DNA of 64,000 nt from a virus, in the IMG/VR virus record IMGVR_UViG_3300048502_000040, positions 23,901 to 87,900 of that record. One strand, 5' to 3'. A program made the position numbers and the translations under genes. The notes under the pieces are model-generated. The model was given only the letters and a program-made list of their open reading frames with translations. It had not been told where the DNA came from and ran no database searches. This document shows, one piece after another, positions 23,152 through 30,052 of the stretch (positions are counted from its first letter, which is position 1; each line of letters starts with the position of its first letter).

Positions 23152-25014
23152 TTATTTTACTGGACATACTCCGCCCTCACATTCCATCCCGTCAAGTTCT
23201 CCCTGACCTATATCTTCCAAGTTCAGGGGTTTGATCTTGCTGGACAACTTGTGGTACTGCTCCTCAGTGATGGCTTCCTTTGGGGCTTGCACGAAGCCAT
23301 GATCGCTATGACACAAAAAGCTAATAGACTTGAGATACTGAAGATTCTCGGACAGCCAAACTTTCAACTTAGGGATATCTTCTCGCTTGTAGTAAACCGT
23401 AACAGATACGGCTTGATCTGCCCAATGTTTCTGAGCCATCTTGAGAACGTCAAGCTGTTTCCACGTATCCCACTGCTCATCCGCTACTGGCTGCCCGGCT
23501 GGGGTCTCGATGTAGAAGTCCGCAACTAAAGTCTGAGGATCAATACCTCCTCCAAACTTCTGAACAGGCTCTACATAATGCCCGGCTTCCCTCAGCTTAG
23601 GCACGAGCGCGTCATTGGATGCGAACCTAACCCTCTGAATGAAGTGCCTGCTGTAGGCTGCGTGGATACCCTCGTAGCCCATGCAGTCAAGAACTTTAGA
23701 CAGGGTTCCAGACGGCTTCACTACTGTAGTCCGCTTGCTCTTAGGTATTCCTAGCTCCTTGCTGTACCGTTCGTCCTCATCTTGGATAGCAGCGTAGGCT
23801 TGGTCTAAAACTTCCGGTACGAATAGAGGCGATGCCAAGCACCCGGTTATACTTGTGCCTGTACGTCTGTTTCTCTGGATCACATCCTGTGATACCTTAT
23901 GGTGGTAATGCTCCATCGTCACACGCTTGGCGTAACGGTGCATAAGTCGGGCGGTATCAAAGAACTCTTGAGGACTTTCAAGATTACATAGAGCAATCTC
24001 AGTCAGGTTACAAGGCTCTCCGTTTTCTAAAGTTGCCTCGGCGCACGGGTTCACTCCGATAGCATTGTCGGGCTTCATCTCCCCCATGCGTCCGTACTTT
24101 TGCATGTTGGATCGGTTCACTAACCCGAAAGGTTCTCCCTGTTCATAAGTCTTCCAAAACAGGGGATGAAGGTCTTCTGTATCGTCGCACACAACACTAT
24201 AGTTAGCGCAACTTCTGTGCGAAGGCAGTACACCTAAATCCCATCTCTTAGCCCGAAGATAATCCTTATCCCAAGCATCACCTAGAATGATGATAGCCGA
24301 GCGTCGGACGTTTCCAGCGACAACCATTTCCCCAGTGGCAGTAATAATGTCCGCAGCATCTAAGGTGCGCACATGCCTTCCTTCTCGGTTATTTAGAATT
24401 GCACACAGGTTGGAAACGAATTTTATAAGCGGGATAGGACCAGACGCAGTACCTCCAAAACCAACTATGGATTCCCCGTAACCGCGTACGCAAACCGTCG
24501 AGTAACTGAATGACTTTCCAGTAACAAAGAAGCTCTCTAGTACACGCCGAGTTAGTTCACACCATCCCTCTCGACTGTCCGGTACGATGAAGTCAGCGTC
24601 TTTAGTCCCTTTATGGACAATGACGACATCCTTCTTGACCCTTGGAAGCTTGCTGGTGAAACGGTGCTCAACGCTTAGACCCACGCCGCCTCCGAGCATA
24701 AGAAGGTCTTGTGCTATTACGAAATTGTTCCAATCATCTGCGGTAAAGAACCAACAGTTGTTTAGAGCCGCCCCGCCAATTTTAGAATGAGAGGGTGAGC
24801 CGGACATCCATATACCACGTCCCGCTGCACACGCCTTGCGATCTTGTCCTAACCGTATAAGAGCCTTGATCTCTGACTCAGGTACGTTCTTTCCTTTTAC
24901 GTTGCCCATTACAACACGTTCGATGGTTTGATCCCAATTCTCTAAGAACCCGTTATCTTGCCTGTTATACGTTCTACGGGTTACCACGCGGGCAAGGTTG
25001 CTCCAATCTTTCAC
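23152..25014 (-). CDS. nrdJ: class II (B12-dependent) ribonucleoside-triphosphate reductase
   Basis: ALNNCWF, GNVRRSA, NPCAE, EPCNLTEI, VKPSGTLS, C-terminal CEGGVCPVK. Confidence 0.93.
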   Translation of the reverse strand: MKDWSNLARVVTRRTYNRQDNGFLENWDQTIERVVMGNVKGKNVPESEIKALIRLGQDRKACAAGRGIWMSGSPSHSKIGGAALNNCWFFTADDWNNFVIAQDLLMLGGGVGLSVEHRFTSKLPRVKKDVVIVHKGTKDADFIVPDSREGWCELTRRVLESFFVTGKSFSYSTVCVRGYGESIVGFGGTASGPIPLIKFVSNLCAILNNREGRHVRTLDAADIITATGEMVVAGNVRRSAIIILGDAWDKDYLRAKRWDLGVLPSHRSCANYSVVCDDTEDLHPLFWKTYEQGEPFGLVNRSNMQKYGRMGEMKPDNAIGVNPCAEATLENGEPCNLTEIALCNLESPQEFFDTARLMHRYAKRVTMEHYHHKVSQDVIQRNRRTGTSITGCLASPLFVPEVLDQAYAAIQDEDERYSKELGIPKSKRTTVVKPSGTLSKVLDCMGYEGIHAAYSRHFIQRVRFASNDALVPKLREAGHYVEPVQKFGGGIDPQTLVADFYIETPAGQPVADEQWDTWKQLDVLKMAQKHWADQAVSVTVYYKREDIPKLKVWLSENLQYLKSISFLCHSDHGFVQAPKEAITEEQYHKLSSKIKPLNLEDIGQGELDGMECEGGVCPVK

Positions 25015-25047: not shown

Positions 25048-25716
25048 TCATTCTGCTCTCTTTCTTACCTTGCTTCTTAGTTCTTTTAGCCTCTCTACGA
25101 AGCGTGTACCTCGTAGGCTGTAAAAGAACCTGTACTTGGGCTTTCGAGGTATGCGTTTTATGTCGGACTCATTCAATCCCAGTGCTCTCATACGGTCTGC
25201 CGTTTGGTTGTATCTGGCAAACTTGTGATCCCCCAAGTAGTAATCAACTCTGGGAGATTTGCGCTCTTCATCCTGCATTCCGTCAGGCGACCAGTTGCCT
25301 GCTTTGTAGATAGTACCGCTGTGTCCCATACTGGGGTCTGCGAAGCTAACTATACCTTCGACGTGCGGAAACTGCTTCTTCACTAGCATAATGGTTTTGG
25401 CAACAAACCAAGTCTCCGAGTTCTTTGGCATCTCGTCCAGCAACCATAACCTCGCCAACTCCCAACAAACACACCCATACCGTTTATTTATCTGGAGAGA
25501 TGGCATGGAGTAGATGCAGGTTCCTACACATTCTTCTCCACGAAACAGACCGAAAACGCAAAGAACCACCCCCGGCCATTTGCGGAGATAATGCTCTTTC
25601 ACCATCCAGTCCACTTGCTCACGGGATACTTGGCGAACTTGTAGAGTATTGAATTGGAGCGGAGGAGTCGGGTTCGAACCGCTACCGTCAGCCGGGATAG
25701 GCTGCTGTACTACCAT
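25048..25716 (-). CDS. mom: Mom-like DNA adenine modification enzyme (GNAT-related); first 21 codons overlap the tRNA
   Basis: HYL..., ELARLWL, NSETWF, SFADPSMGHSGTIYKAGNW. Start AUG lies in the tRNA D-loop with GGAGG 7 nt upstream. Confidence 0.8.
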   Translation of the reverse strand: MVVQQPIPADGSGSNPTPPLQFNTLQVRQVSREQVDWMVKEHYLRKWPGVVLCVFGLFRGEECVGTCIYSMPSLQINKRYGCVCWELARLWLLDEMPKNSETWFVAKTIMLVKKQFPHVEGIVSFADPSMGHSGTIYKAGNWSPDGMQDEERKSPRVDYYLGDHKFARYNQTADRMRALGLNESDIKRIPRKPKYRFFYSLRGTRFVERLKELRSKVRKRAE

Positions 25717-25730
25717 TGTACGACCTCCGC
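25655..25730 (-). tRNA. non-canonical tRNA-Gly-like (76 nt)
   Basis: GCGGAGG UC GUAC AAUGGUA GUAC A GCAGC CUAUCCCG GCUGA CGGU AGCGG UUCGAAC CCGACU CCUCCGC U CCA. Perfect 7-bp acceptor with G1-C72, C2-G71, G3-C70, U73 and encoded CCA; 8-nt anticodon loop containing UCC/CCC; bulged A in T-stem. Confidence 0.85.
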
Positions 25731-25736
25731 AAGTCT

Positions 25737-25766
25737 ATTATAACACATGCCGAACGAGAATGGCAA
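25737..25766 (-). promoter_or_regulatory. strong extended -10 sigma70 promoter for tRNA/mom
   Basis: TTGCCA-18 nt-(TG-n-)TATAAT, ending 7 nt before tRNA G1; the -10 overlaps the TAA of the upstream gene. Confidence 0.8.
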
Positions 25767-26568
25767 CTGCGCCACCGAGTCCCACCCCTACCCCGTACAG
25801 GAAGCTCTTGAGCTTTCCTTTACGGGCTGATGCTTTTTCCGCAGTCAGTTCTTTCGCGTCCGCTGTCTTCTGATCCGTGAGTTCGGTTCCCAGTCCGTCG
25901 ATCTGCTGGGCCTGATCCGTAATCACGGTGTTTGCCTTTGCGAGTTCCGCTTGGCCGTTACTGACTTGTGTTTGTGCGTCGGCGAGATTCTGCTTGAGCA
26001 CCGGCACCTGTTCAAGAGCTACCACCGTGCCGATAGCCGCAGCAGGGTCTACCGTTATCCCTGCGGTCGTGGCCGTGAGATCGCCGGGCTGTGCGTCGAT
26101 GAGGGATGCCCATCGGTTGCCGAGATCGGGCATCGGCAGAGTCTTGTCGGTAGCCTGCTGCTGTTGGAGGACAATCGTGCGGCTGGCGCTGGCCGCAACA
26201 AGCTGGGCATTCTGCTGAGACAACGCCGCAACAGTTGCCTTGTAGCTAGTAGCGTCCTGCTGGGCCTGCTGTGCCAGCGCCACGTCCTTGTCATGCTGCA
26301 CAACGAGTGTCTGGGCCGCGATGTTGGCCTGTTGCTTGTCACGATCCGCTACGACACTTAGATACTTGAAGCTGCCGAGTAACATGGCCAAGCTAATTAT
26401 CAGGGCCAAGATAATGCGCTCGTGAACCTTTAGCCACGACTCTGCCTTGGTCACGTCAGCCTTCGCTGTTGTCTCAATATTTTGAAACCCTTGGATTATA
26501 TTTGTTTGTGCTGTCTTCAAACCGGACGCAGCGGCTATCGTAGTTGTCGGTGTGGCTGTGGCGCTCAT
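25738..26568 (-). CDS. membrane-anchored coiled-coil protein, spanin(Rz)-like
   Basis: AAGGAG RBS, ATG 26568; TM segment IILALIISLAMLLGSF, Q/A-rich coiled coil, hydrophobic C-terminus. Confidence 0.55.
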   Translation of the reverse strand: MSATATPTTTIAAASGLKTAQTNIIQGFQNIETTAKADVTKAESWLKVHERIILALIISLAMLLGSFKYLSVVADRDKQQANIAAQTLVVQHDKDVALAQQAQQDATSYKATVAALSQQNAQLVAASASRTIVLQQQQATDKTLPMPDLGNRWASLIDAQPGDLTATTAGITVDPAAAIGTVVALEQVPVLKQNLADAQTQVSNGQAELAKANTVITDQAQQIDGLGTELTDQKTADAKELTAEKASARKGKLKSFLYGVGVGLGGAVAILVRHVL

Positions 26569-26886: not shown

Positions 26887-27294
26887 TTACTCCACTTTGT
26901 ACTCGGAACAGACGTACTTGATGCTCCGACCGACGCGCTCGTTGAATGCGAGGATCGCTTTGTTGCCGGGCTTATGATAGCCCATGATGTATTTTACCCC
27001 ACGCTTGCGGGCCTCGTCAACTAACCGCTCCCAGAGCGCCGCGTAGTAACCCTTCTTGCGGTACTCCTTCGAGACGTAGCCCATGTTGACCACGAACTTG
27101 CTCTCTTCCTGATAGAACGAGCAAACGCCTACAACGCGCTTCAACCTGTTCTGGATGAAGAACGCTTCCTCATCGCCGGACGCTGGGGCATCCATCGCTT
27201 CGATGTTCCCTGCTTTGCGCAGCGTCACGTAGGCGTCGATGATGTACGGCAGCACCGGGGTGCCGTGAATCCTTTGCACGTACTCAATCTTCAT
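26887..27294 (-). CDS. GNAT acetyltransferase
   Basis: YVSKEYRKKGYYAAL (R..G motif A), GNKAILAFNERVG. Confidence 0.8.
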   Translation of the reverse strand: MKIEYVQRIHGTPVLPYIIDAYVTLRKAGNIEAMDAPASGDEEAFFIQNRLKRVVGVCSFYQEESKFVVNMGYVSKEYRKKGYYAALWERLVDEARKRGVKYIMGYHKPGNKAILAFNERVGRSIKYVCSEYKVE

Positions 27295-27656
27295 ACATCT
27301 CCTAGCTTGGCCGGATCGAACGACACGGCTTCTGCTTCGTGTTCCTCAAACTGTTGGCGCTCGTACTCTTCCTTCCGCCGCATGTATTGCGCCTGCGCCG
27401 CACTCACATAGCCGTGGGCCGTGTGGTCTATGACTTCAAGGTTTGTCCAGTGGCAGTCGAGCTTGTTCTGATTCTTATGGTTTACGTCCTCTGTTGGCAG
27501 GAGGTCGCGCTTGAGCATAGCTTGTGCGACGAGTGTGTGGACGCGTACGCCAGTGAACGGGCCTGCGCTGATGCGCGGGTAGCCTTTCTCATCGACGTAC
27601 GTCCCAAACTGTTGACCGTCCTTACAGACGAACTTTCCACTAGCGTCTCGCGGCAT
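27291..27656 (-). CDS. HNH endonuclease (I-HmuI/HNH_3-like)
   Basis: GY...RVHTLVA..L..EDVNHKNQNKLD..WTNLEV. Confidence 0.8.
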   Translation of the reverse strand: MPRDASGKFVCKDGQQFGTYVDEKGYPRISAGPFTGVRVHTLVAQAMLKRDLLPTEDVNHKNQNKLDCHWTNLEVIDHTAHGYVSAAQAQYMRRKEEYERQQFEEHEAEAVSFDPAKLGDV

Positions 27657-27849
27657 CCTTCAGTACACCCGTTGTTCCTACCAGCTTTCCTTGCTGGCGT
27701 AGAAGGTCGTAGGCCAGCCACCGGACTTGCCGGGACAGGTGGTCTATCGAGTCGTTACTGTTGAGAAGCTCGATCAACTGCTTGTTGGTCGGCCCCTTGC
27801 ATCGGATGGCGTGTCGCGCCTCCGCTGTTAGTGAAACGATCTTGCTCAT
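27640..27849 (-). CDS. hypothetical protein
   Basis: ATGA overlap in operon. Confidence 0.55.
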   Translation of the reverse strand: MSKIVSLTAEARHAIRCKGPTNKQLIELLNSNDSIDHLSRQVRWLAYDLLRQQGKLVGTTGVLKDAARR

Positions 27850-28289
27850 GAAGCCTGCTTCTCTGCCCGCTTCTGCTTGATGATCGCACTCAGTTTGTCC
27901 AACTGCTTCTCCATGAAGTCGAGGTCGGCTTCGTCTTTTGGACGGTCATCAACCAACTTGTTCTTGGACTGTGCATCCAGCAGGATCGCGCAACATGCGA
28001 TGGCATGGCCGAGATGATGCACCTTGCTGTCGGTCGCCTGCTCCTGACCCTCGAACCAGCACTGAAGGTGGCGCTGTGCGGCGTCCACATAGATGCTGGC
28101 GACAACGGCTTTGTCCCGCCAGTTGTACGCGCCGTACTTCTCTGCCCCGTCCATCATTGCCATTGCGCCGTGGGCCACTGCGATGACAGGTAGTTTTGAA
28201 AGCGAGACCTTGGTGTTGCCTACGAGGTCTTTAGGATTGGTGGTGTCTGCTTTTGATCGCGGTACGATGGTTAGTGCTGTTTCTCCCAT
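27846..28289 (-). CDS. dATP/dGTP diphosphohydrolase (DUF5664-like)
   Basis: K..L..LP..A....M..GAEKYGAYNWR...YVDAAQRHL..W..G...DS..HHLGHAIA. Confidence 0.8.
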   Translation of the reverse strand: MGETALTIVPRSKADTTNPKDLVGNTKVSLSKLPVIAVAHGAMAMMDGAEKYGAYNWRDKAVVASIYVDAAQRHLQCWFEGQEQATDSKVHHLGHAIACCAILLDAQSKNKLVDDRPKDEADLDFMEKQLDKLSAIIKQKRAEKQAS

Positions 28290-28310: not shown

Positions 28311-28718
28311 CTACTTCTTCAGATACTCGATTGCTTTCAATAGGGATTCGATGTCGTCCCTGAAGTAACCAAGTCCTGCGTTACAGTTGTGGCACAGTAG
28401 CCCGCGTACGTCAAGATTCTCATCATGCTTGTGGTCTATACGAGGAGTGTTACCCTCGCCAAACGGTCGCTTGCAGATGGCACACTTATTGTCCTGTTCC
28501 AACATCATCGCCGTGTAGTCTTCAGCGTCCAAGTTGTAACGGCTCTTTCGCTTGCGCCTTGCTTCTGACTCTTTAGCCTGCTCAGGATTGTTCAGCTTCC
28601 AGTTCTTGTTAGCTTGGCGGCTACACGTTTTACACCAATACGCATAGCCGCTTTTGCTTGACTTGGATTTGTCGAAGTCCTCTACAGGTTTGTCAAGTCC
28701 GCACTTGCTGCACTTCAC
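28311..28718 (-). CDS. EndoVII-type homing endonuclease
   Basis: CSKC..CKTC; QDNKCAIC..IDHKH..VRGLLCHNCNAGLG.FRD...AIEYL. Confidence 0.85.
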   Translation of the reverse strand: MKCSKCGLDKPVEDFDKSKSSKSGYAYWCKTCSRQANKNWKLNNPEQAKESEARRKRKSRYNLDAEDYTAMMLEQDNKCAICKRPFGEGNTPRIDHKHDENLDVRGLLCHNCNAGLGYFRDDIESLLKAIEYLKK

Positions 28719-30052
28719 TCGACAACTACCTCTCGCTTAGTGACGATAGTGCCTTGTGCGTCGTCACAATATAACGCGATATTTATGCAGCCCTCGTCCG
28801 CGTTCCAGATGTAAGCCTCAGCGTTGCGGAGGTTTCCAACCAGACCGTTTTCAGAATGCCAGTCGTCAGGCGGGCAGAGCGCCGGGAGGACTCGAACACG
28901 ACAGCCGTACTTCTCATCCAGCTTCGTCATGTGCGTGTGCCCGGTGTGGCACTCACGGTACTTCGTCCGGCCCCACATCTCGTGACGTTCAGATGCCATC
29001 AGAGCGGGGTACTCGGTACGCTTGCCTTTGTCGCCGTGGGTGAACATCAGCATCACGCTTCCCCACTCGATGTACTTCCGAGGAGTTGGCAGGTTGTCGA
29101 TCTTCACGTCTTCGTACTTGGCGAAATAGCATTCGAGCGAATCGCCCAAGTGCCACACAGACAAATTGTCGTGATTGCCGGGAACCATCACCACTTCGAC
29201 CGGAGCAATCTCGCGGAGCAACTCAATGCAACGCGTGATCGTGCGGCGCACCTTCCAGAAGGTCTTGTGGTAACGACCGTCCGTGGTAACGATGGTGCCC
29301 TTCGTGGTCTGGTTCTCGATGTTGTCGGAGTTGAACAGGTCGTTGCCGACAACAAAGATGATCTTGTCGAAGGAGTAACCCTTGACGCGTTCGAGGAGCG
29401 TGACCAGCGCCCGCATATACATTTGTTCGGCGATGGTCGAATCGAAGTTCTCGTACATCGTCTCAGTGCCCCACGCCAGTTTGCCGAAGTGGATGTCGGG
29501 GATGTTGATCTCCAACATGTTGCCAGTGTTGTTCGACTTCCTCGCAATGATCTTTGGGACGCGGGCGAAGGCTTTAGCTTCTGCCTTCAGGCGCTCGATC
29601 TCTTTGCGCACTGCCACGACCTCGACACGCTTCTTGAGCGTTGCCGTGACCTGATAGAGTGCGTGTTCGGCTGCCTTGTTGTTGCTGCGGTCAACGTACC
29701 CCATCTCCCATTTGTTGACTTTGAAGTTCGTCACTTCCCAGATGGACAAGTCCACCTTGCAGTATTCGAGCAACTCGTCAAGCGTGTGGATGCGGGTCTT
29801 CGGCATGTGGAGATTCCACACATCGCCAGAGACTTCGCTGGTGAGGTCAGGTGCGGCAGGCTTGGTCGGTTCGAGCTTGATGCCTGCTGCGGTAGCAAAG
29901 TCGCGGAACGTGGCGAAGTGAGCCTGCCACGCTGCCTCGGGATACTTGCCACCCGCACGATAATAGTTGCGCGTGACGACTCCCTTGTACTTCTGTGCTA
30001 CACTCTTCAAGTCGGCGATTAGTTCGGCGACGGTGATCTTTTTACTTCCCAT
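28715..30052 (-). CDS. calcineurin-like metallophosphoesterase
   Basis: PDIHFG, GNDLFN, PGNHD, FTHGD, GHTH. Confidence 0.85.
   Translation of the reverse strand: MGSKKITVAELIADLKSVAQKYKGVVTRNYYRAGGKYPEAAWQAHFATFRDFATAAGIKLEPTKPAAPDLTSEVSGDVWNLHMPKTRIHTLDELLEYCKVDLSIWEVTNFKVNKWEMGYVDRSNNKAAEHALYQVTATLKKRVEVVAVRKEIERLKAEAKAFARVPKIIARKSNNTGNMLEINIPDIHFGKLAWGTETMYENFDSTIAEQMYMRALVTLLERVKGYSFDKIIFVVGNDLFNSDNIENQTTKGTIVTTDGRYHKTFWKVRRTITRCIELLREIAPVEVVMVPGNHDNLSVWHLGDSLECYFAKYEDVKIDNLPTPRKYIEWGSVMLMFTHGDKGKRTEYPALMASERHEMWGRTKYRECHTGHTHMTKLDEKYGCRVRVLPALCPPDDWHSENGLVGNLRNAEAYIWNADEGCINIALYCDDAQGTIVTKREVVVE

Follow-up and report, generated by a model that had tools for sequence, protein, structure and literature searches.

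Here we describe a 76-nt tRNA-Gly-like RNA that lies within the 5′ end of the gene for a homologue of Mom, the enzyme with which phage Mu modifies adenine in DNA. Both are encoded in the window, the 64-kb stretch of DNA analysed here, which is part of the 98.5-kb virus record IMGVR_UViG_3300048502_000040 (IMG/VR), judged complete. The RNA belongs to a conserved, covarying family that is linked to mom genes. It keeps the determinants read by bacterial glycyl-tRNA synthetase (GlyRS) together with the features of the L-shape, it has lost the decoding loop of an ordinary tRNA, and its T stem is distorted. On balance this combination suggests that the RNA is probably a glycine carrier that is kept out of translation and used by Mom. 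An earlier examination of the letters alone, referred to here as the sequence-only reading, had proposed a dedicated glycine-donor RNA, and comparison with relatives supports that interpretation in part.

The element was read straight from the minus strand. Its acceptor stem, GCGGAGG/CCUCCGC, provides the pairs G1-C72, C2-G71, G3-C70 and G4-C69. The D arm (GUAC-AAUGGUA-GUAC) and T loop (UUCGAAC) resemble those of bacterial tRNA-Gly, and both the GG of the D loop and the UUCRA of the T loop, which belong to the L-shape, are retained. The published determinants for bacterial GlyRS are G1-C72, C2-G71, C35, C36 and U73, plus G3-C70, with a purine at 4 and a pyrimidine at 69 preferred (PMC10464925). 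This identity set is fully present in the window RNA, G4-C69 included. A canonical elongator tRNA-Gly would instead have seven nucleotides in its anticodon loop, among them U33 and a purine at 37, as well as a regular 5-bp T stem. Here the loop has six nucleotides, the anticodon stem CAGCC/GGCUG is displaced by one position, and the 3′ strand of the T stem accommodates an extra nucleotide (Table 1). The cloverleaf that the sequence-only reading placed at the 5′ end of Mom therefore holds for its 76-nt length, acceptor elements, U73 and CCA, but not for the anticodon arm or the T stem.

Standard tools recognize the element poorly. ARAGORN with default settings finds no tRNA anywhere in the window, and none in most relatives either. 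At a relaxed threshold it labels the site 'tRNA-???' with a 2-base anticodon, which is no evidence by itself because the same setting makes 87 mostly false calls in the phage genome. The general tRNA model of Rfam gives 28.7 bits (E 9e-4) against a gathering score of 29, and the single-sequence fold energy is not better than that of shuffles (z -1.1), so that the evidence for structure is comparative. The deformations of the loop and T stem account for the ARAGORN miss, the sub-threshold Rfam score and the uninformative fold energy alike. A second covariance model, R2, was trained on 88 relatives from the set found with the T arm alone (see below), with the window and its near kin left out. 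Run on the whole 64 kb, it has one match, the window element over its full length, which scores 78.4 bits (E about 1e-18) with zero non-standard pairs. This bears out the statement that the element is the sole tRNA in the window. Four canonical tRNAs (Leu-GAG, Pro-UGG, Ala-UGC and Asn-GUU) sit elsewhere in the phage genome, outside the window (G000:C1 2330-3378 and 88747-90233), where ARAGORN also makes a doubtful call of a permuted transfer-messenger RNA.

Relatives were collected from IMG/VR by pattern scans that made no use of Mom, using the 3′ half of the element, the same pattern minus CCA, and the T arm alone. Counts from these scans are among the matches listed and are hence lower bounds. 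At least about 130 distinct cloverleaf-like relatives were found among the matches listed, in viral contigs and a few bacterial genomes. The set found with the T arm alone has a paired acceptor in 96 of its 115 new matches, and a Mom gene lies at most 500 nt from 86 of these 96 cloverleaf-like matches (both among the matches listed). Covariation and composition were counted on a model-fitted alignment of 80 distinct sequences from the T-arm-only set, again among the matches listed. Partners pair in 98.4% of cells, compared with 40-47% when partners are slid, and compensatory changes occur at 17 of the 21 pairs. All five anticodon-stem pairs covary in relatives. The locus with the closest Mom homologue (L023, 80% identical) bears the same RNA, with two anticodon-stem pairs changed on both sides. 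A covarying tRNA overlap with Mom genes, whose absence would have told against the sequence-only reading, is thus present in this family.

Conservation is concentrated at particular positions. Acceptor pairs 4-7 vary freely, whereas G1-C72 is kept in 80/80 sequences, C2-G71 in 79/80 and G3-C70 in 70/80, with G-U in another 8. U73 is found in 72/80, and the loop reads NCC in 78/80 (UCC in 61, ACC in 17). Judged from these alignments, the fixed positions of the family are the published bacterial GlyRS determinants G1-C72, C2-G71, C35, C36 and U73. The loop deformation is equally widespread, with an anticodon loop of 5 nt in 37 sequences and 6 nt in 36. For the T stem, a scan that fixed only the 3′ strand (CCGMCY, acceptor and CCA) returned cloverleaf-like matches whose 5′ strand pairs around the extra A, and the bulge is also present in copies from Chloroflexota genomes, which were found by model rather than by pattern. 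The bulge occurs in 78/80 aligned sequences, a figure that is not independent since later scans fixed it. Both purifying selection and covariation are strong across Mom proteins that are merely 20-30% identical.

Members of the family were also found in bacterial genomes and metagenome-assembled genomes (MAGs), always with Mom: in Olsenella urininfantis, in an Ignavibacteriota MAG and in Chloroflexota genomes. The Olsenella member (L254 6507-6582; strain Marseille-P3197T, NZ_LT732540.1) lies about 230 nt downstream of the Mom gene. It comes from a cultured isolate, and its sequence is identical to that of a viral contig (L136). A blastn search of the window region against 50,697 phage records gave no match, and one with a consensus-like member against the same records gave just canonical cyanophage tRNA-Gly, with no cultured-phage member found. 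Four other loci (L291, L323, L333 and L403) share one 73-nt tRNA-like sequence with a bulged T arm, GGCGG-UUCAAGU-CCGACC. It has another acceptor and is without CCA, NCC loop or nearby Mom gene. A further class of RNA may share the bulged T arm.

The open reading frame (ORF) that contains the RNA is clearly that of a Mom homologue, by both sequence and predicted structure. It matches Pfam PF25680 over residues 25-204 with 107.8 bits (cut-off 27.1; E 7.4e-31) and is the sole PF25680 gene in the phage genome. Among proteins of solved structure, Mu Mom (8BV8, 4e-11) matches it best in sequence. The AlphaFold2 (AF2) model has a mean predicted local distance difference test (pLDDT) score of 80.8, and its top Foldseek match is again 8BV8 (E 1.8e-11, TM-score 0.61-0.66), with the next GNAT protein at 1e-5, six orders of magnitude worse. 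The protein is thus Mom-like rather than a member of another GNAT family, as the sequence-only reading had said. Using the residue numbers of the Mu Mom paper and mapping by alignment to 8BV8, Mu residues H58, Y59, R111, D149 and Y159 correspond to H42, Y43, R89, D127 and Y137, all conserved. In the AF2 model the RNA-encoded residues 1-20 have pLDDT values of 40-50 and are predicted to be disordered, values rise to about 90 from residue 21, and the Mom fold begins directly after the CCA. A disordered peptide at this place suggests that selection acts on the RNA.

Placement relative to Mom was counted for ARRANGEMENTS in 120 distinct contexts (among the matches listed). The element lies inside the 5′ end of the Mom ORF in 55 of these, as in the window, and overlaps the 3′ end of the ORF in 38. 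It is 8-232 nt downstream of Mom in 7, upstream without overlap in 5, on the opposite strand in 2, and not classified in 3. The remaining 10 have no Mom gene in the available sequence, 8 of them near a contig end. These differing placements fit an RNA that acts in trans. Among the 55 embedded at the 5′ end, the ATG nearest the conserved domain is at RNA position 15 in 19 and 3-18 nt before G1 in 23. Several of the first 35 loci have zero start codons between the element and the conserved Mom domain, so there the RNA truly belongs to the Mom coding sequence. Predicted Mom N-termini of the form GGS[IN]PT.PLQ, anticipated by the sequence-only reading as the translated T arm and CCA, were indeed found.

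A few loci depart from these arrangements. Tandem diverged Mom paralogues occur at three loci (L288 4012-5259; L267 8995-10195; L131 790-2002), each with the element at the 5′ end of one of the two. One member (L116 4047-4238, plus strand, 86.7 bits) sits in a 63-aa ORF that reads GGSIPTSPLQ and then meets an early stop, with no Mom domain downstream of it; here mom may have been lost or truncated and the RNA left intact. A second, degenerate element (L013 351-430, plus strand, 39.5 bits) has the acceptor strands, a bulged T arm (GGCGG-7 nt-CCGACC) and UCCA around an unrelated middle. The overlap here is with the start (GGAGGGAGAT-ATG) of a gene of the DruA family (PF14236, 5.5e-14), and the mom gene of the same contig lies 2.5 kb further downstream. 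The RNA module may attach to non-mom genes also.

In the window, the RNA overlaps codons 1-21 of the Mom ORF and has the start codon in its D loop. This AUG is the sole plausible Mom start, because the next in-frame start, a GTG at RNA position 117, falls inside the conserved fold. GGAGG of the acceptor strand can serve as a candidate Shine-Dalgarno site for mom, and L023 likewise has GGAGG-7 nt-AUG. The claim that the element has its own promoter was upheld. The promoter matches 11/12 consensus positions, has a TG-extended -10, is the sole such site within 2 kb and ends 6 nt before G1. The layout at L023 is equal (TTGACG-17-TGgTATAAT-6 nt-G1), despite diverged flanks. Across the family, -10-like hexamers number 27 at 1-13 nt before G1 in 118 upstream regions, compared with 8 across the next 40 positions, which is a weak signal. 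A peat metatranscriptome holds two 151-nt contigs that are identical to the window (25579-25729 and 25731-25881) and abut at G1, for which a unitig break, a read pair or DNA carry-over are all possible.

Table 1. Features of the mom locus and neighbouring genes, in window positions.
Feature	Position	Strand	Details
tRNA-Gly-like RNA, 76 nt	25655..25730	-	acceptor, D arm, shifted anticodon arm, bulged T arm, U73, CCA
Discriminator U73 and encoded CCA	25655..25658	-	CCA at 25657..25655
Extra unpaired A (position 63), T-stem 3′ strand	25668	-	AGCGG / CCG-A-CU
Anticodon-like loop UAUCCC, 6 nt	25694..25699	-	stem CAGCC/GGCUG; contains UCC, C35 and C36
AUG in D loop, RNA positions 15-17	25714..25716	-	start of Mom
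GGAGG, RNA positions 3-7 (acceptor 5′ strand)	25724..25728	-	7 nt ahead of AUG; pairs with CCUCC when folded
Sigma-70-type promoter	25737..25766	-	near-consensus: -35 TTGCCA (25766..25761), 18-nt spacer, TGtTATAAT, -10 TATAAT (25742..25737)
Mom homologue, 222 aa	25048..25716	-	residues 1-21 are translated RNA; fold from near residue 23
B12-type (class II) ribonucleotide reductase	23152..25014	-	directly downstream of mom
Small GNAT acetyltransferase	26887..27294	-	near mom
Weak HNH match	27291..27656	-	below Pfam cut-off
147-aa protein	27846..28289	-	dATP/dGTP diphosphohydrolase N-terminal domain (PF18909, 6e-25)
Endonuclease VII	28311..28718	-	near mom
Metallophosphatase and weak HNH-repeat match	28715..30052	-	both below Pfam cut-off

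The proposed role builds on the chemistry of Mu Mom, which transfers glycine from Gly-tRNAGly to adenine N6 in double-stranded DNA, works with any of the three isoacceptors but not with Gly-tRNAAla (Silva et al. 2026, PMC13219725); the sequence-only reading had named this glycine source correctly. Of the tRNA, Mom is believed to recognize chiefly the 3′ end (PMC13219725). For the window, we propose that host GlyRS would charge the RNA with glycine, that elongation factor Tu (EF-Tu) and the ribosome would pass over the charged RNA, and that Mom would move glycine from it onto N6 of adenines in the phage DNA, just as Mu Mom does from the Gly-tRNAGly of its host. The product expected of a Mom-family enzyme is N6-carbamoylmethyl-adenine. 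Such a donor pool would be free of competition with protein synthesis and free of sequestration by EF-Tu. The 5-6-nt anticodon loop and the bulge in the T stem speak against a translational role, in agreement with the sequence-only reading, and the T stem is the region bound by EF-Tu. Consistent with a private glycine donor, ARAGORN finds no canonical tRNA-Gly in the 98.5-kb phage genome.

A transcript from the promoter would begin at or near G1 and would also be the mom mRNA. Folding of the RNA pairs the Shine-Dalgarno site, so that translating mom and maturing the RNA would be alternative fates, and each transcript would be either translated into Mom or folded and trimmed into the RNA. It is possible, and we suggest it tentatively, that the phage thereby has a self-contained aminoacyl-carrier system for DNA chemistry in which one transcript becomes either the enzyme or its private donor. 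Early loading of ribosomes on the Shine-Dalgarno site of the acceptor strand would yield Mom, and folding of the RNA first would yield a glycine carrier unseen by EF-Tu. If true, this single-transcript choice fixes the enzyme-to-donor ratio and shields translation, and the RNA family consists of natural tRNAs that are orthogonal to the ribosome and not to the synthetase.

Several observations weigh against a glycine carrier reserved for Mom. The essential R151 of Mu Mom is S129 here (Ser in at least 90% of the alignment of close homologues) and S124 is T102, so that the chemistry of the window Mom may differ. CCA is encoded in just 56/80 relatives and missing from about 30%. The near-invariance of the T-stem bulge is partly built in, because the bulge belonged to most search patterns. 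GlyRS contacts both the anticodon-loop and T-stem regions (PMC10464925), and the 5-6-nt loop and bulged T stem might impair this enzyme too. Trimming the RNA from a 5′-embedded copy removes the start of that mRNA. The only contigs from RNA libraries that cover the site give no information on this, and one of them spans the CCA into mom. Finally, Mu Mom works, and many Mom clades exist, without such an RNA.

The last point was examined at Mom loci outside the family. A covariance model of the family found no member at 79 Mom loci of the window's sister clade, nor at 10 other Mom loci from metagenomes and 3 from cultured phages; the same model returned ordinary tRNAs only, in two loci. At the three cultured-phage loci the genes are tightly packed at the expected RNA site. 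On a tree of the Mom domain, the RNA trait needs at least 5-8 gains or losses. The sampling of this tree is biased, as RNA-bearing loci were found via the RNA and RNA-less loci via a protein motif of one clade, and no order of events is inferred from it. With many Mom clades, the sister clade included, lacking the RNA, it is an accessory and not a requirement. The view that the RNA is dedicated to Mom is supported as far as the RNA is conserved and covarying, keeps the GlyRS set and is linked to Mom in about 120 contexts.

An unlikely alternative that deserves weight is that the RNA is a tRNA mimic which controls Mom without being a substrate, bound by GlyRS or by Mom, an enzyme that holds the acceptor end of tRNAGly. 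It could act in cis on its own mRNA as a translation feedback, like threonyl-tRNA synthetase (ThrRS) on the thrS leader, or in trans, where the uncharged RNA would be a competitive inhibitor restraining a toxic enzyme. In the window both the Shine-Dalgarno site and the AUG are inside the fold, so folding or binding would block initiation, and the 5′ end is the commonest placement (55/120). The relatives that do not encode CCA also suit a mimic, as do the known toxicity of Mom and the tight translational control of Mu mom through mRNA structure, in which Com and a translation-inhibition stem take part. However, initiation control is impossible for the 38 copies at the ORF 3′ end and for others downstream or on the opposite strand, and many 5′ copies have the start codon upstream of the fold. 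Moreover, the near-invariant C35, C36 and U73 are positions read by GlyRS, whereas Mom is thought to read chiefly the 3′ end. The trans-inhibitor version is compatible with all of these points.

We consider it improbable that the RNA is a processing or stability element, whose tRNA shape would attract an enzyme (RNase P, RNase Z or the CCA-adding enzyme) that cuts or caps the mom transcript, and which would set mRNA ends or half-life while bearing no amino acid. Other systems are known to punctuate their transcripts with tRNA-like elements, and the presence of the RNA at either end of the mom ORF would fit such a role. This would leave unexplained the conservation of the glycine identity elements and NCC loop, the link to Mom rather than to phage genes generally, and the opposite-strand copies. 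It is very improbable that the RNA takes part in decoding, its unusual loop serving for instance to shift the frame or read odd codons, or that it is the decaying remnant of a tRNA-Gly gene or integration site where mom happened to land. Phages often carry tRNAs, this one has four, and ARAGORN gives one relative a 4-base anticodon, but the 5-6-nt loops in 73/80 (among the matches listed), the extra T-stem nucleotide, the strict Mom linkage and the selection and covariation across divergent Mom proteins speak against both, since covariation is not expected of a relic, nor would a decoder track one enzyme gene. The idea of a phage attachment site (attP) or tRNA remnant was rejected in view of the covariation, the conserved deformations and the varied placement.

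The genes around mom (Table 1) suggest a block of nucleotide-metabolism and DNA-handling functions. One neighbour has a domain of the dATP/dGTP diphosphohydrolase type, and such enzymes are known in base-replacing phages. This prompted the idea of a Z-genome, with 2-aminoadenine in place of adenine. The idea was dropped, as no PurZ-like adenylosuccinate synthetase is encoded in the 98.5-kb genome, and the PF18909 protein is therefore no pointer to a 2-aminoadenine genome.

An embedded tRNA-Gly-like locus has been published before. McMurdie et al. 2011 (PMC3146451) reported a 76-bp tRNA-Gly-like locus, labelled 'pseudo-tRNA' by annotation pipelines, within the first 150 bp of a mom homologue in Dehalococcoides ssrA islands. 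They also noted the same locus in a marine fosmid, used it as a primer target and proposed no function (PMC3146451). The sequence-only reading, which knew of no described Mom cassette with a built-in donor tRNA, was thus mistaken on this point, though the 2011 report is without the donor idea. We found copies inside the Mom ORF in 3/151 sampled Chloroflexota genomes (L412, L413 and L414). L412 and L413, the two that were parsed, have the bulged A of the T stem and a loop reading AUCCA, and L414 is almost the same in sequence as L413. Given copies of the same build in Mom ORFs of Chloroflexota, the published Dehalococcoides element is very likely a member of this RNA family. Searches of the literature on momylation, on mom with pseudo-tRNA and on mom with tRNA-like found no paper linking the RNA to Mom chemistry, and the Mom papers make no mention of a phage or island tRNA. 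As far as searched, a functional link between the RNA and Mom is absent from the literature, and the locus is a further member of a described yet unexplained kind.

The donor of Mom has only recently been shown, and in the published view the phage scavenges host tRNA. A widespread, conserved, translation-unfit tRNA-Gly within mom genes suggests that many phages and islands may supply their own donor. If true, this explains a 15-year-old 'pseudo-tRNA' annotation, offers natural pairs of Mom and donor for study, shows phages putting tRNA genes to a new purpose in counter-defence, and provides tRNAs which GlyRS charges but the ribosome does not see. There are practical consequences for annotation too, as tRNA finders overlook such genes and gene callers place the Mom start inconsistently.

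A close likeness is to the Dehalococcoides pseudo-tRNA, which is alike in size, in its resemblance to tRNA-Gly and in its place early in a mom homologue. That RNA is in bacterial integrative islands, whereas the window RNA is in a 98.5-kb phage and has its own promoter, and the report on it predates the knowledge that Mom needs Gly-tRNAGly. Mu Mom (8BV8) shares protein family and fold with the window Mom, including the five kept residues, and differs from it by S124 and R151 in place of Thr and Ser. Mu is without a tRNA of its own and scavenges host isoacceptors, and the expression of its Mom is under the control of Com. The N-terminal tail of the window Mom is encoded by the RNA gene. The thrS operator of Escherichia coli is likewise a tRNA look-alike over the ribosome-binding site of the gene for a tRNA-binding protein. 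It mimics the anticodon arm only, lacks both an acceptor end and CCA, and always occupies the leader, whereas the Mom-linked RNA keeps the whole L-shape with CCA and is often at the 3′ end of the gene.

A functional parallel comes from staphylococci, where a non-proteogenic tRNAGly is charged normally by GlyRS, poorly bound by EF-Tu and the ribosome, and reserved for the GNAT-related, tRNA-dependent transferases FmhB, FemA and FemB (Rietmeyer et al. 2020, PMC7826273). EF-Tu sequesters the ordinary staphylococcal tRNAGly away from FmhB, and the reserved tRNA avoids competition with translation (PMC7826273). It differs in build: its anticodon loop has 7 nt, its T stem is regular, and what sets it apart are base changes in the D arm and T arm, where the window RNA is deformed instead. 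It is also chromosomal, located in tRNA operons rather than embedded in an enzyme gene, and its target is peptidoglycan. Staphylococci thus bring their own donor for the cell wall; here the donor would serve DNA modification and is encoded inside the gene of the enzyme.

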